Source of the DNA: Escherichia phage UGJNEcP1
Length of the DNA: 64,000 nucleotides
Strand: one strand, 5' to 3'
Sequence record: OV754623
In this document: piece after piece, positions 1,151-24,384 of the stretch
Position numbering within the stretch: the first letter of the stretch is position 1
Layout of the letters: each line of letters opens with the position of its first letter
The notes under the pieces: model-generated
Told to the model about the DNA's origin: nothing
Database searches by the model: none
Seen by the model: the letters and a program-made list of their open reading frames with translations, nothing else
Position numbers and translations under genes: made by a program

Positions 1151-2145
1151 CATTCCTTAAGAAGTTTTACTACTTGAATAAGATTAGCTCGTTCTGTTTT
1201 ATTTTTACCATTTAAGCCTGCTAATCGTGAGATTTCACCATCAGTCTGTTGAATAGTTACATTAAGTTCGTTAATCAAAGCTTCAAAGTATTTGATTTGC
1301 TCAGCATGTTTTGATTCAAATTTCTGAACCGGAATAACGTCTTGGTTTAGTTCATCAATAAGGTCTTTAAGAGCATCTTCTTGGTTGATATCATATTCAA
1401 CTTCTTTTATTTCTTCAACGAGCTCATCTTTATATCTAACGTCTTTTAGTCCTGGGGTCGGGCCTAAAATCTCTTCTTTAAGAGTACAAACATATCCAAT
1501 ACGATATCCAGTGCCGTCTCGCTTGATATCAACTTCGTCGATAAATCCACAATGTTTGAGGCCAGAGCCGATTAGGTCAAAATATCCTTGACGACGTCCT
1601 TCAAACGTTACACGAACTACTAAGACAGTTTTACCTGCAACCTTTTGAAGCTCACATTTATAAAAGTCAGTTGAACCTGAATAACGTGGATGAGTTTTAA
1701 AGTTCATCTGACGATCTAAGCCCATTTGTAAACGTGCTGATACGGCCAGAAAACGTGTTTGGTTCTCGTTAAGATGAGCAACAATCCATTTCAAAGGCAT
1801 TTTACCCTGTTCACGACCGAACAAATCAGTATGTCCTAGATTACGCAGGATGTTGTTAGAGTTAATCATCGACAGAACGTTAAGTTTATTCAGCGCGCTG
1901 AAGATTCCATCAGCCATTGATTTTCCGTAGCCTTTACACGCTTTAATAAGCGCTCGCGGTAGATTAGTATAGATTTCAGACGGCATATGAAAATCAAATT
2001 TACTAACCAGTAATTGATGAACTTGGATAGCAATTCGTTCATAATTAAGTGCTCTGCGATCATTATGGTCTTTAAACCACACTTTAATCTGTGAAGCACA
2101 TAAACCGTTAATTTCATGTTTTACCGCATCAGATGTAATGCTCAT
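1150..2145 (-). CDS. hypothetical protein (331 aa)
   Basis: Long ORF, compact spacing with neighbours; no family recognised. Confidence 0.6.
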   Translation of the reverse strand: MSITSDAVKHEINGLCASQIKVWFKDHNDRRALNYERIAIQVHQLLVSKFDFHMPSEIYTNLPRALIKACKGYGKSMADGIFSALNKLNVLSMINSNNILRNLGHTDLFGREQGKMPLKWIVAHLNENQTRFLAVSARLQMGLDRQMNFKTHPRYSGSTDFYKCELQKVAGKTVLVVRVTFEGRRQGYFDLIGSGLKHCGFIDEVDIKRDGTGYRIGYVCTLKEEILGPTPGLKDVRYKDELVEEIKEVEYDINQEDALKDLIDELNQDVIPVQKFESKHAEQIKYFEALINELNVTIQQTDGEISRLAGLNGKNKTERANLIQVVKLLKE

Positions 2146-11612: not shown

Positions 11613-11826
11613 AAGGAATTTCCTCATCAGTGGCAAGGTCATATTCGACCAATTGGATAGGCTCATTAATACCATATCCACGTACAGTGATATCAGTTGT
11701 CGGATAGTTTCCAGTAATATCACCCATTCTAAATGCTTCAATGAATGATTGCTCGCCTGAGCAACTAAACCAGGCGGCAAAACATTTTAAAACATCTTCA
11801 GACCCTTCTATAATCAATTTAGCCAT
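11602..11826 (-). CDS. hypothetical protein (74 aa)
   Basis: ORF with ATGA overlap to the GrcA-like gene. Confidence 0.45.
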   Translation of the reverse strand: MAKLIIEGSEDVLKCFAAWFSCSGEQSFIEAFRMGDITGNYPTTDITVRGYGINEPIQLVEYDLATDEEIPYVD

Positions 11827-12188
11827 TATAGACTCTCAGTAAAGGTACGAGCGATAACGTCGCGCTGCTGTTCCGGAGTCAGAGAGTTAAAGCGAACTGC
11901 ATAACCGGATACACGGATGGTCAGCTGCGGATATTTTTCTGGATGCTTAACTGCATCTTCCAGAGTTTCGCGACGCAGAACGTTAACGTTCAGGTGTTGA
12001 CCACCTTCAATTTTAACTTTAGGTTGATGTTCAATTTCAATTTCACGGGCATTCAAACCGTAGAAAATTTCCGGGTCTACAATAGCGTCTTCTTTAAAAG
12101 TCTTAGAGACAATAATCCGGGCTTGAGTACCGTCTTCAAAATAAATAGTGCCTTTGTGTTCACCTTCAAGAATTTGATATGCTTTCAT
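11826..12188 (-). CDS. autonomous glycyl-radical cofactor (GrcA/YfiD-like)
   Basis: C-terminal [25 protein letters not shown] glycyl-radical motif; 3' half of the gene is markedly GC-richer than phage background. Confidence 0.8.
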
Positions 12189-12194
12189 ATAACC

Positions 12195-12503
12195 TCAATT
12201 AGAAAATAAATTTATCCAAGATTTTTCTTTAATCAAAAATGGGTCGGAATTAAACGCCATTAAACTTTGAGTGATTAATCCTTTAAATGGCCCATCAATA
12301 AATTCCATTTTGAAATGTGGAATACTAGTCATCAACCGTGCATTAGGAGCAGTACAAAGAACCTGCTGCCCTGCAAACGGTCCTTTAGTCAAACGATAAC
12401 GTTTAGGTTTAAAATGATAAATCTCGTAATTTTCTACAAGAGCCCTTTTATTGCATACTGGGCTGTTATAACAATACTCAAAAACTTCAATAGTGGTCAT
12501 CAT
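12195..12503 (-). CDS. hypothetical protein (~102 aa)
   Basis: ATG overlapping upstream stop (ATGATGA at 12497-12503). Confidence 0.45.
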   Translation of the reverse strand: MMTTIEVFEYCYNSPVCNKRALVENYEIYHFKPKRYRLTKGPFAGQQVLCTAPNARLMTSIPHFKMEFIDGPFKGLITQSLMAFNSDPFLIKEKSWINLFSN

Positions 12504-13039
12504 TGCATTCCAATCACAAAAAATTGAGGACGAGCAATACCACCGATGCAATATTTGCTTTTGCAACAGTGTTGGACTGTTTTAATATGGATGTCGTAAA
12601 TCTTATCCATATCAGGAGCTTTAATAGGCTCGTCAATTATGTACAGAATACGAGAAAGCGTTAATCCACGGAATTTATGTCCTTCATTACCAATAAAACT
12701 ACGGACAGAATCAGTAAATAAACGGAATCTAATATCATCGCTAGAATAACGAGAAAATTCTTTTTTAATGTTGCCAACAGAAATTTTAGCATAAGCTGAA
12801 GTATTAGAAAGAACAATAACTGTTCCACCATCATACAGCCAATTAACAGCAAAATTAGTTACTGCGGTCGATTTACCAGATTGCCTGCCGCCGTCTAAAC
12901 GAAGTGTACAGTACTGCTTGAGTACGTCTTCAAATGGTGGGGCATAACCGTTCTTACAAATTTCTTCTACTCTAGCATCAGAATGGTGTGTAAAAGCATT
13001 CATCAGGGATAGATAAGGTCCGGTTAAAAATGTTCTCAT
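12500..13039 (-). CDS. small P-loop NTPase (Walker A GGRQSGKST, Walker B ILYIIDEP)
   Basis: Motifs read from translation; preceded by an unusual GC-rich ~170-nt leader. Confidence 0.55.
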   Translation of the reverse strand: MRTFLTGPYLSLMNAFTHHSDARVEEICKNGYAPPFEDVLKQYCTLRLDGGRQSGKSTAVTNFAVNWLYDGGTVIVLSNTSAYAKISVGNIKKEFSRYSSDDIRFRLFTDSVRSFIGNEGHKFRGLTLSRILYIIDEPIKAPDMDKIYDIHIKTVQHCCKSKYCIGGIARPQFFVIGMQ

Positions 13040-13212
13040 TTAGTTTCTCTTTTAGGTTGGGCCATTCCGTGGCACATGTTAGGTCCTTCGACTCGCTATG
13101 TAAACCCATTACCGCACTTGGGCTCGACCTTATTACAGGTTGGAAAAGGTACATCACTCAGAGGACTCGACGTTCATGAGGAGAGGTTGCGTTTCCCTTT
13201 ATTAGGCAAGAA

Positions 13213-13542
13213 TTATACTCTAGGCTTTTGAGCTTGTTTGGTATTGGATTCCCATGCAGCTTTGGTAATTTTGTTAGCGGCATAACCAAAGGCACTAGAT
13301 AGAACACCTTTAGAGTTGAATACATCCAATCCAATAAGTACACCGGCTGTGTTAAATTTAGGAGCAAAGTACGCATTAGTTTTAGAAAGAGCTTTTTTCA
13401 ATTCAGGGTCTTGAACCAAACCATCAAAAACGCCTTTACTATTTACTTTATATGTTACTTTGGGATTTTTACCTTCTTCGATAGCAGCTTTCTGTTCCGC
13501 AGATAATGTAACTTCAGTGATAAACTCTTGATACGTTTTCAT
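13213..13542 (-). CDS. internal-protein-like (capsid-targeting leader MKTYQEFITE)
   Basis: N-terminus matches the T4 internal-protein capsid targeting sequence ending in the prohead-protease site I/L-x-E. Confidence 0.7.
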   Translation of the reverse strand: MKTYQEFITEVTLSAEQKAAIEEGKNPKVTYKVNSKGVFDGLVQDPELKKALSKTNAYFAPKFNTAGVLIGLDVFNSKGVLSSAFGYAANKITKAAWESNTKQAQKPRV

Positions 13543-13567
13543 TTTGTTCCTATTGTTTTAATTTATG

Positions 13568-13882
13568 TTATTCTTTAGGGAAGTTTTTAGAGTATGCATC
13601 ATAAAGTTTATTACCGATGCGACGGAAGACTTTAGCTGCAAAACGGTTTTCAGGGTTTTTAATCATGATTTGCATCATGTAAGTTCCTGCATCCGAAAGA
13701 GCTTCTTCATAGTACCCATTAATTTCTTTAAGGGTCCTACGTTTACCGCCAGGACCATCAACAGTAATTTTCCATTTACCTGTAGAAGTGCGGCTCGGTG
13801 GCTCAACTTGTTCAATCCAAATATAACCGCCTTCAACGCGTTGGTTGGCGGATTCTGCAATAAATTCTTTATACGTTTTCAT
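13568..13882 (-). CDS. internal-protein-like (capsid-targeting leader MKTYKEFIAE)
   Basis: Same N-terminal leader; promoter 13912-13941 upstream. Confidence 0.7.
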   Translation of the reverse strand: MKTYKEFIAESANQRVEGGYIWIEQVEPPSRTSTGKWKITVDGPGGKRRTLKEINGYYEEALSDAGTYMMQIMIKNPENRFAAKVFRRIGNKLYDAYSKNFPKE

Positions 13883-24229: not shown

Positions 24230-24306
<77 letters not shown>

Positions 24307-24309
24307 GAT

Positions 24310-24384
24310 TGGTGACCCTGGCTGGTTTCGATCCAGCTACCTATCAGTTATGAGCTGACAGCTCTCCCATTGAGCTACAGGGCC
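24310..24384 (-). tRNA. tRNA with CAU anticodon (Ile-lysidine type or Met), CCA encoded
   Basis: Acceptor GGCCCTG/CAGGGTC, D-stem GCTC/GAGC, anticodon loop CTCATAA, T-stem GCTGG/CCAGC; 3 nt from tRNA-Arg. Confidence 0.75.

Follow-up and report, generated by a model that had tools for sequence, protein, structure and literature searches.

In the DNA of Escherichia phage UGJNEcP1 (sequence record OV754623), a stretch of 64,000 nucleotides (nt), hereafter the window, was analysed with the focus on a gap between two genes at positions 13040-13212, in the middle of which lies a conserved 44-nt core that is well supported as a structured RNA. Over the 1.7 kb compared, the window shares 100% identity with Escherichia phage UGJNEcP2 and ~97% with RB69, and it is assigned to the RB69-like Mosigvirus, that is, to the T4-type phages. 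On the minus strand, the local gene order is lysozyme e, an internal-protein (IP)-like open reading frame (ORF), denV, three small ORFs of the MKTYQEFI type, the gap, and then vs.8, vs.7 and vs.6. A sequence-only reading of this DNA had placed the gap between a small P-loop NTPase gene and an internal-protein-like gene, and these boundaries match the ORFs found. Downstream lies vs.8 (12500..13039, minus strand), encoding a terminase-ATPase-like P-loop protein, and upstream lies an internal-protein-like ORF (13213..13542, minus strand) with an MKTYQEFI... N-terminus of the capsid-targeting type, the counterpart of RB69ORF123c. The curated record of RB69 shows no feature in the gap. Since minus-strand genes lie on both sides, the sequence quoted in that reading, whose content was otherwise right, has to be reverse-complemented to give the RNA sense.

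The gap has a GC content of 46.8%, compared to 38.1% for the window, placing it at the 98.4th percentile of all 173-nt segments; the GC richness reported earlier is therefore real, although the excess is modest, with several nearby coding stretches at 45-46%. The repeated hexamers reported with it are also present, GACTCG at 13090 and 13164 and CTCGAC at 13123 and 13166 (GUCGAG and CGAGUC in the RNA sense). These are four matches against ~0.035 expected, a count reached by only 0.14% of sliding segments, but the copy within GGUCGAGCC, in the core, is the sole one kept in other genera, while the remaining copies vary.

Standard tools gave little indication of an RNA. Minimum-free-energy (MFE) folding of the gap was no better than that of shuffles on either strand (z +1.73 and +1.43), which counts against a structured RNA. 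When the whole window was scanned with the 4,227 models of Rfam 15 at the gathering threshold, only two tRNAs were found, and a scan of 12900-13350 at E up to 10 returned only chance-level eukaryotic families. In the same interval, no match was obtained to RF00005 up to E 10 or to RF00023 (tmRNA), and no intrinsic terminator was found in 12700-13700. ARAGORN, searching the window for tRNAs and tmRNA, returned only the adjacent minus-strand genes tRNA-Arg(tct) and tRNA-Met(cat) at 24230-24384. Taken alone, these first-line tests, among them the folding and covariance-model scan that the sequence-only reading had proposed, would have led to the false dismissal of the finding; it is the comparison with other phages that gives a conserved structure.

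The 44-nt core and its predicted three-way junction

A covariance model of the core, R1, gave a single match on the 64 kb, at 13146..13103 (70.2 bits, E 8e-23), defining a minus-strand module of 44 nt (UUUCCAACCUGUAAUAAGGUCGAGCCCAAGUGCGGUAAUGGGUU, 13103..13146). It is modelled as a three-way junction, with a helix P1 of 3-5 bp, a helix P2 of 4 bp capped by a G-N-R-R-N-A loop, and a helix P3 of two or three G/C pairs to which a closing C-G may be added; UAA serves as the junction strand. The 5' strand of P1, UCCA (13141..13144), is predicted to pair with UGGG (13105..13108), and the helix is bulged in the versions from PEi20, Melville and Ivi. P2 is the hairpin ACCU-GUAAUA-AGGU (13127..13140), with a GNRA-like hexaloop, and is invariant in most copies. 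The P3 region, C-G-A-GC-(CCAAGU)-GC-GG (13112..13126), includes G-C as well as C-G pairs, perhaps closed by one more C-G; a G is bulged, and an A stands opposite a G (A.G). It is followed by the junction strand UAA (13109..13111), and GGUAA is unchanged in all copies, the most divergent included.

The innermost pair of P1, formed by the nucleotide 5' of ACCUG and the nucleotide 3' of GCGGUAA, is paired in all 38 sequences and occurs as five types (AU, UA, UG, CG and GC; in alignment A3, AU22, CG5, UA5, UG2 and GC1). Overall, 86.5-88.5% of the cells are paired, compared to 17-62% when the partners are slid, and neither the observed percentage nor the covariation score was reached by any of 500 shuffles. 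In P2, ACCU/AGGU is replaced by GCCU/AGGC, a double change, in Salmonella phage Melville and in the second copy of PEi20 (AU34, GC2). In P3, pair b, C-G in the majority of copies, is changed to U-A in the second copy of PEi20 (AGCCCGCGGC versus AGUCCGCGAC), and the third pair is G.U in RB69 and IT22, G-C in Entb_45 and C-G in that second copy. The G after GGUC behaves as a bulge, being absent from the second copy and U in Melville. R1 also recovers divergent copies, including the tandem second copies of Karamvirus and PEi20 and the RB69 version, which at 43 nt is one nucleotide shorter than that of the window. These helices are thus kept by compensatory changes across lineages, as in structured RNAs generally, with few independent events in P2 and P3.

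Besides the MFE result, several points weigh against this model. The covariation of P2 and P3 comes from few events, and P3 was assigned by eye because the model-guided alignment misplaced it. Partners slid by +1 give an equal covariation score, so that only the percentage paired discriminates, and in alignments A1 and A2 a large part of the apparent invariance was imposed by the exact search patterns used. As a test of strand, pairing is weak, with 88.5% of cells paired in the sense and 86.2% in the antisense orientation; the core was assigned to its strand because its orientation is always that of the neighbouring genes and tRNAs, and the use of G.U pairs as strand proof was dropped, the asymmetry between sense and antisense being too small. 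Moreover, the three-way junction is not the MFE structure of the isolated 44-mer of the window (-4.8 versus -9.5 kcal/mol), and some copies give positive three-way-junction energies when P1 bulges are ignored, suggesting that the junction, if formed, probably needs tertiary contacts or a partner. A rod-like fold in which ACC/GGU extends P1, the MFE structure of some copies, was rejected, as it is broken by the RB69 and Entb_45 variants and contains frequent A-C mismatches. No covariation between the P2 and P3 loops was seen by eye.

Distribution and genomic surroundings of the core

Matches to the gap were obtained in 1,120 phage records, and in 348 of these they span at least 80% of it. T4-like phages of Klebsiella and Enterobacter match it over nearly the full length at 82-89%, and Tequatroviruses over ~57% of it at ~80%. 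A 40-nt core is found at 88-97% in otherwise unrelated phages. With the further instances collected by exact-pattern scans of viral and metagenome collections and by additional BLAST searches, the core is 88-100% identical in rV5-like phages, Ivi, the phAPEC8-like DE16, the N4-like Pylas and siphophage contigs of ~46 kb, with unrelated flanks. The suggestion that the gap is a remnant of acquired or host DNA was not supported, since the gap has no match in 5,426 complete E. coli genomes and the core is better conserved than its flanks. Carriers within Tevenvirinae include Mosigvirus, Tequatrovirus, Karamvirus, Kanagawavirus, Roskildevirus, Tegunavirus, Gelderlandvirus, T4-like phages of Klebsiella and Edwardsiella phage PEi20. 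Outside this subfamily, they are Vequintavirinae (V18), Phapecoctavirus (DE16), the N4-like Pylas of Schitoviridae, the ~46-kb siphophage contigs and the 45-kb Ivi. By sequence comparison, the virulent enterobacterial phages that have the core fall into six or more unrelated groups. As no description of this RNA was found in the literature, it apparently represents an undescribed family of structured RNAs.

Within one siphophage group, the presence of the core varies, both it and the tRNAs being found in related contigs and missing from the 47-kb VLCpiS13c. In PEi20 and Karamvirus-type phages, the core is followed ~115 nt further downstream by a tandem second one that is more divergent (L162 478-519, L182 9136-9177, L194 637-678 and L178 5136..5095), each core having its own upstream hairpin domain. 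Two apparent extensions of the range were discarded. Carriers labelled 'Campylobacter phage' do not indicate a wider host range, as these records are UNVERIFIED and classified as Vequintavirus; the host label of MG065674 and ~17 similar records of ~140 kb is doubtful. Bacterial look-alikes from a loose 16-mer genome scan are chance matches, and the two that were extended (L064 and L097) lie inside sulfotransferase domains of ORFs for nonribosomal peptide or polyketide synthases.

The gene before the element in T4-like phages is denV or an IP gene, and the one after it is usually vs.8. In the rV5-like, phAPEC8-like, Pylas-like, siphophage and Ivi-class loci, co-oriented tRNA genes lie within 1.5 kb of the core in 17 of 22 cases; among the other five, two offer too short a flank, two belong to the Ivi class and one (L163) has no such tRNA. 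The core is located between tRNA-Thr and tRNA-Gly in a 10-tRNA cluster in DE16 and after a 6-tRNA cluster in Pylas. Good TTGACA promoters follow it in V18 and Ivi, and in Ivi a terminator precedes it. Its orientation is in all cases that of the neighbouring genes. No protein gene neighbouring the core in several phage classes was found among the ORFs on the strand of the element. The tRNA-Arg(tct)/tRNA-Met(cat) pair of the window also adjoins the core in several siphophage contigs, and occurs with other tRNAs in rV5-like and phAPEC8-like loci. Furthermore, the rV5-like loci repeat the motif CCC(C)UUAGAGGGCUUGA(U/A)AGUGC, upstream of the element in V18 (L002 2560-2620) and on both sides of it in L150, which may be a phage-specific regulatory or terminator-promoter signal.

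Some carriers also contain a region resembling the tag-encoding part of tmRNA; in siphophage contigs it precedes the core by ~250 nt, and in Pylas-type loci it follows ~430-470 nt after the core. This region consists of an A-rich run, AUAAAU, GCA AAC GA... and then a stop codon, and encodes ANEEMYLAVA, ANEEVYLAVA or ANDDVVLMAA. It scores 33.7 bits (E 1e-4) against Rfam tmRNA_permuted, below the gathering score of 47. Such tag elements, with the stop codon in a hairpin loop, were located in L154 (~1700..1520, minus strand), L166, L171, L179, L202 (2480-2567) and L205 (1490-1545). The tag stretch matches 727 records from Felixounavirus, Kuttervirus, G7C-like and other phages, and is unannotated in most of them. 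In Felixounavirus bumzen, a tag element encoding ANDNVFLAVA lies in a tRNA cluster behind TTGACA-17-TATACT, without the core; upstream of it, a tRNA-like domain is not evident. The presence of ssrA has been reported for a FelixO1-like phage (PMC4319497). ARAGORN found no tmRNA in four phage loci tested, while the positive control, E. coli ssrA, was found.

In Pylas and the siphophages, the core is preceded by a hairpin that can be aligned with nt 277-310 of E. coli ssrA (z 5.1, reached by none of 300 shuffles) and resembles its nt 277-301. For the gaps of the window, the Klebsiella phages and T4, local alignment to ssrA gave z values of 1.8, -0.4 and -0.6, with 7% of shuffles equalling the window's score, and no tmRNA tag frame was found near the core in the window or the T4-like loci, occurring beside the core only in siphophage and Pylas loci. 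On this evidence, the core neighbours, or is inserted into, tmRNA-like RNAs in some phages, and the element of the window is not tmRNA-derived. A tmRNA derivation was not supported for the element of the window, the ssrA similarity holding only for the flanking hairpin in other phages.

Around the core in L140, L154, L166, L202 and L201, arrays of structured non-coding cassettes were observed ~500 nt to either side, between the tmRNA-like element and ordinary tRNAs. The cassettes have variable inserts and are closed by a GUUGUGRYG...CRYCACAAC helix or by a covarying stem of the AAGAGCAUUG/CAGUGCUCUU type. In the Pylas locus L202, two regions without an ARAGORN call have tRNA-like features. At ~2134-2207, a 10-bp acceptor-like stem surrounds a D-arm-like hairpin and a GCGG-UUCGAUU-CCGC T-arm, and at ~2443-2464 the sequence UUAGG-UUCAACU-CCUAA-ACCA was found, in which GGUUCAACUCC is identical to the T-arm of E. 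coli ssrA.

Remaining parts of the gap and the T4 vs.8 gene model

The gap is a composite of a 5' domain, the core and a module 2, all on the minus strand. The 5' domain (13145..13200) has an outer stem AAAGG/CCUUU and the invariant segments CCUCUCCUCAUGAAC (13186..13172) and UCCUCUGAGUGA (13165..13154); its outer stem covaries, occurring as AAAGG/CCUUU, AAAGC/GCUUU and AAAGA/UCUUU. This domain is limited to T4-like phages of the Mosigvirus/Klebsiella/Karamvirus type and absent from non-T4 loci, and a different hairpin takes its place in Tequatroviruses. Module 2 (GGUUUACAU...AAGGAC...AUGU-GCCA-CGGAA-UGGC, 13061..13106) is joined 3' of the core and conserved in T4-like phages; in siphophage contigs it stands apart as a cassette of its own, at position -111 or +80 relative to the core, and VLCpiS13c has it without the core. 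Module 2 ends in a 3' hairpin, GCCA-CGGAA-UGGC (13061..13073), with GGA in the loop, which lies ~10 nt before the vs.8 ribosome-binding site. The sequence of this hairpin is conserved in all T4-like genera; its pairing we infer, there being no covariation. The vs.8 ribosome-binding site AAGAGA and its ATG (13039..13037) occupy 13037..13051, and the resulting MRTFLTG start is common to RB69 and Tequatrovirus loci. Upstream of this site, two GGA motifs ~20 nt apart (13061-13090), AAGGAC and the CGGAA loop, are conserved in T4-like phages, in an arrangement that resembles a CsrA-type binding site. A promoter-like sequence, TTTACA-17-TAACAT (13076..13104, minus strand), matches nine of 12 hexamer positions outside the core. 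The region contains three such sites, compared to 2.7 in shuffles, and the -10 hexamer of this one is not kept in Klebsiella phages or Tequatrovirus; the match is probably non-functional.

In T4, the element lies inside an annotated coding sequence. NC_000866 annotates vs.8 as a protein of 219 amino acids (aa) starting 26 nt after denV (64253..64912, or L203 1754-2413) and running through the element, and R1 finds the core there at about 64,858-64,901 with 68.2 bits. This annotation, together with window ORFs of 49-59 aa that overlap the gap, is what could speak for protein-coding sequence, either an N-terminal extension of Vs.8 or small ORFs. However, of 29 T4-like loci, just two have a frame that runs through the core into vs.8, and most of the 29 share a start of the MRTFLTG or MKFLTP type after the element; it is to a CTTATAGAG duplication alone that T4 owes its open frame. 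In addition, the cores of close relatives differ by internal indels of 1-2 nt, and variation in the core is not three-periodic. We therefore rejected the core as coding sequence, the T4 extension included, and consider a coding role for the gap exceedingly improbable, in agreement with the earlier statement that no clean ORF explains it. The T4 vs.8 model probably starts ~40 codons too early, and this over-long model would have hidden the element in T4. Vs.8 itself is an uncharacterised terminase-ATPase-like protein able to activate Avs2 (bioRxiv 10.64898/2026.04.30.721860).

Two observations were made on neighbouring genes. Between 13213 and 14836, four small ORFs begin with MK(T/M)Y(Q/K/S)EF(I/L), similar to the sequence that targets T4 internal proteins to the capsid, and their interleaving with denV suggests that the internal-protein set is expanded and rearranged relative to T4. 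The product of vs.6 (11826-12188) has a C-terminal glycyl-radical motif, and the T4 record names it autonomous glycyl radical cofactor GrcA.

Possible roles of the core and comparison with known RNAs

The core can be compared with phage RNAs that are found among tRNA genes. RNA C and RNA D of T4 (species 1 and 2, rnaC/rnaD) are stable non-tRNA RNAs co-oriented in the T4 tRNA cluster (NC_000866), a niche like that of the core in rV5-like, phAPEC8-like, Pylas and siphophage loci. Unlike rnaC/rnaD, the T4-like element lies between denV/IP genes and vs.8, outside the tRNA cluster. With filters off, R1 matched only the denV-vs.8 site within 62.5-74.5 kb of T4 and left rnaC/rnaD unmatched, and homology to them was rejected. 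GOLLD and ROOL are large structured RNAs of phages and prophages, typically located beside tRNA genes. The cassette arrays of siphophages and Pylas resemble this theme, but the core differs in being 44 nt and modular, and Rfam gave no match to GOLLD or ROOL in the window or the related loci scanned, the latter yielding ordinary tRNAs only. The core likewise shares with tmRNA its position beside the tag region and the ssrA-like hairpin in some phages; it differs in that the core has no counterpart in ssrA, the window lacks tag frame, tRNA-like domain and ssrA similarity, and Felixounavirus has the tag element without the core. PeSL cassettes, said to have been introduced by Arbiol and colleagues in 2010, reportedly consist of an early promoter and a simple stem-loop and occur many times per T4-type genome. 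Both are short conserved intergenic cassettes in plastic regions of T4-type phages, apparently mobile by recombination, but the core is present as a single copy in the window, has no conserved promoter, is predicted to form a three-way junction and occurs in unrelated phage families. Resemblances to JUMPstart/ops, ToxI, the 3' end of 16S rRNA, the anticodon loop of tRNA-Tyr and the T-loop were short or non-conserved and were dropped.

Our preferred reading, which we hold at about even confidence, is that the gap gives rise to a composite structured RNA on the minus strand, the core of which is an exchangeable module read by a shared partner and not a dedicated vs.8 regulator. The comparisons show that the core is non-coding, conserved far beyond its flanks, kept in its helices by compensatory changes and exchanged among unrelated phages. 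It would act as an RNA, transcribed in T4-like phages with the early/middle IP-denV-vs.8 unit and elsewhere with tRNA operons, and where it lies between tRNAs it may be released as a discrete fragment by tRNA processing. The near-invariant stems and loops suggest sequence-specific recognition by a partner common to all carrier phages. This partner would most plausibly be a conserved host protein or RNA of the tRNA, tmRNA or ribosome sphere, or a host defence factor aimed there, which the core would bind, sequester or recruit. It tells against the host factor that the argument for it comes from the distribution of the core only. The sequence-only reading had suggested a structured 5' untranslated region or a small RNA; a conserved structured RNA agrees with this, but a leader is too narrow, as the core also occurs in phages without vs.8.

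A cis-acting leader of vs.8, acting as a riboswitch-like element or as a protein-binding translational operator, seems unlikely to us. It would account for the distance of 6-90 nt that separates the end of the element from the vs.8 start in almost every T4-like locus, and for the GGA-loop hairpin beside the ribosome-binding site with a second (A/G)UGGA(C/U) ~20 nt upstream. However, the core also lies amid tRNAs, upstream of sigma-70-type promoters (V18 and Ivi) and after a terminator (Ivi), which argues against a dedicated leader, and the core precedes regB in a T4 deletion mutant. The next gene is different or distant in STP4-a and L012, the core is duplicated in tandem in some phages, and no riboswitch family was matched. 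The downstream neighbours thus differ (vs.8, regB, tRNAs, promoters and small ORFs), at odds with the constant neighbour of a riboswitch or dedicated leader. We give a somewhat better, though still low, chance to an element of RNA processing or stability, that is, a punctuation mark cut by an RNase of host or phage, a barrier protecting neighbouring RNA or a small self-cleaving ribozyme. The core always lies between cistrons or tRNAs of polycistronic units, and the siphophage, Pylas and phAPEC8-like cassette arrays contain long helices that may be substrates of the RNase III type. Like the hammerhead ribozyme and the purine-riboswitch aptamer, the core would be a compact three-helix junction, of small-ribozyme size, with conserved junction nucleotides and a covarying closing helix. 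However, its junction strands (none, C-G-A and GGUAA) contain neither the hammerhead CUGANGA/GAAA, absent on direct reading, nor the purine-aptamer junction sequences; no similarity to Rfam 15 ribozyme families, the hammerhead among them, was detected; and no consistent downstream gene follows. Moreover, the helices of known small ribozymes vary freely, whereas P2 and P3 are nearly invariant.

The remaining alternatives are weak. It is improbable that the element acts at the level of DNA, as a promoter, as a cassette for recombination or shuffling or as a sequence associated with homing endonucleases, with incidental pairing. The movement of the module between phage families, its presence/absence polymorphism, HNH endonuclease genes close by in some loci, the marginal strand asymmetry of pairing and the promoter-like sequence at 13104..13076 could be cited for it; but this last site is outside the core, does not exceed chance and is not conserved, three helices are maintained by double compensatory changes, and the orientation is always that of transcription. 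Slightly less probable still is a decaying relic of a tmRNA- or tRNA-like gene without a function of its own in T4-like phages. The tag frame (ANEEMYLAVA, ANDDVVLMAA) 250-470 nt from the core in the 46-kb siphophages and Pylas and the ssrA-like hairpin before the core would fit such an origin, but the gaps of the window, the Klebsiella phages and T4 have no ssrA similarity, tag frame or tRNA/tmRNA call, and identity of 88-100% amid diverging flanks is unlike a relic.

T4 and RB69 are among the best-studied genomes, and yet RB69 has no annotation for the element and T4 has it within an annotated coding sequence; the finding would correct the T4 vs.8 gene model. As for method, it was comparison across phage families alone that flagged the core, which MFE folding and Rfam would have missed. 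Near-identical stems and loops across myo-, sipho- and podophages indicate strong shared selection and repeated horizontal transfer, with a common host target as the easiest reading. The company of the core, comprising tRNA clusters and tmRNA-like tags, and in T4-like phages a locus rich in IP and vs genes, suggests a tie to translation or to immunity that targets tRNAs, a field in which phage counter-measures are currently coming to light. Being short, the core lends itself to direct biochemistry and to clean T4 genetics. More tentatively, and with rather less confidence than we place in an exchangeable RNA module as such, the core may represent a new class of phage RNA: a mobile protein- or ribosome-binding or catalytic module, exchanged by at least six lineages and placed among tRNA and tmRNA-like genes, that would manipulate translation quality control or disarm tRNA-directed defence, and that stayed hidden in T4 through the mis-annotation of vs.8.

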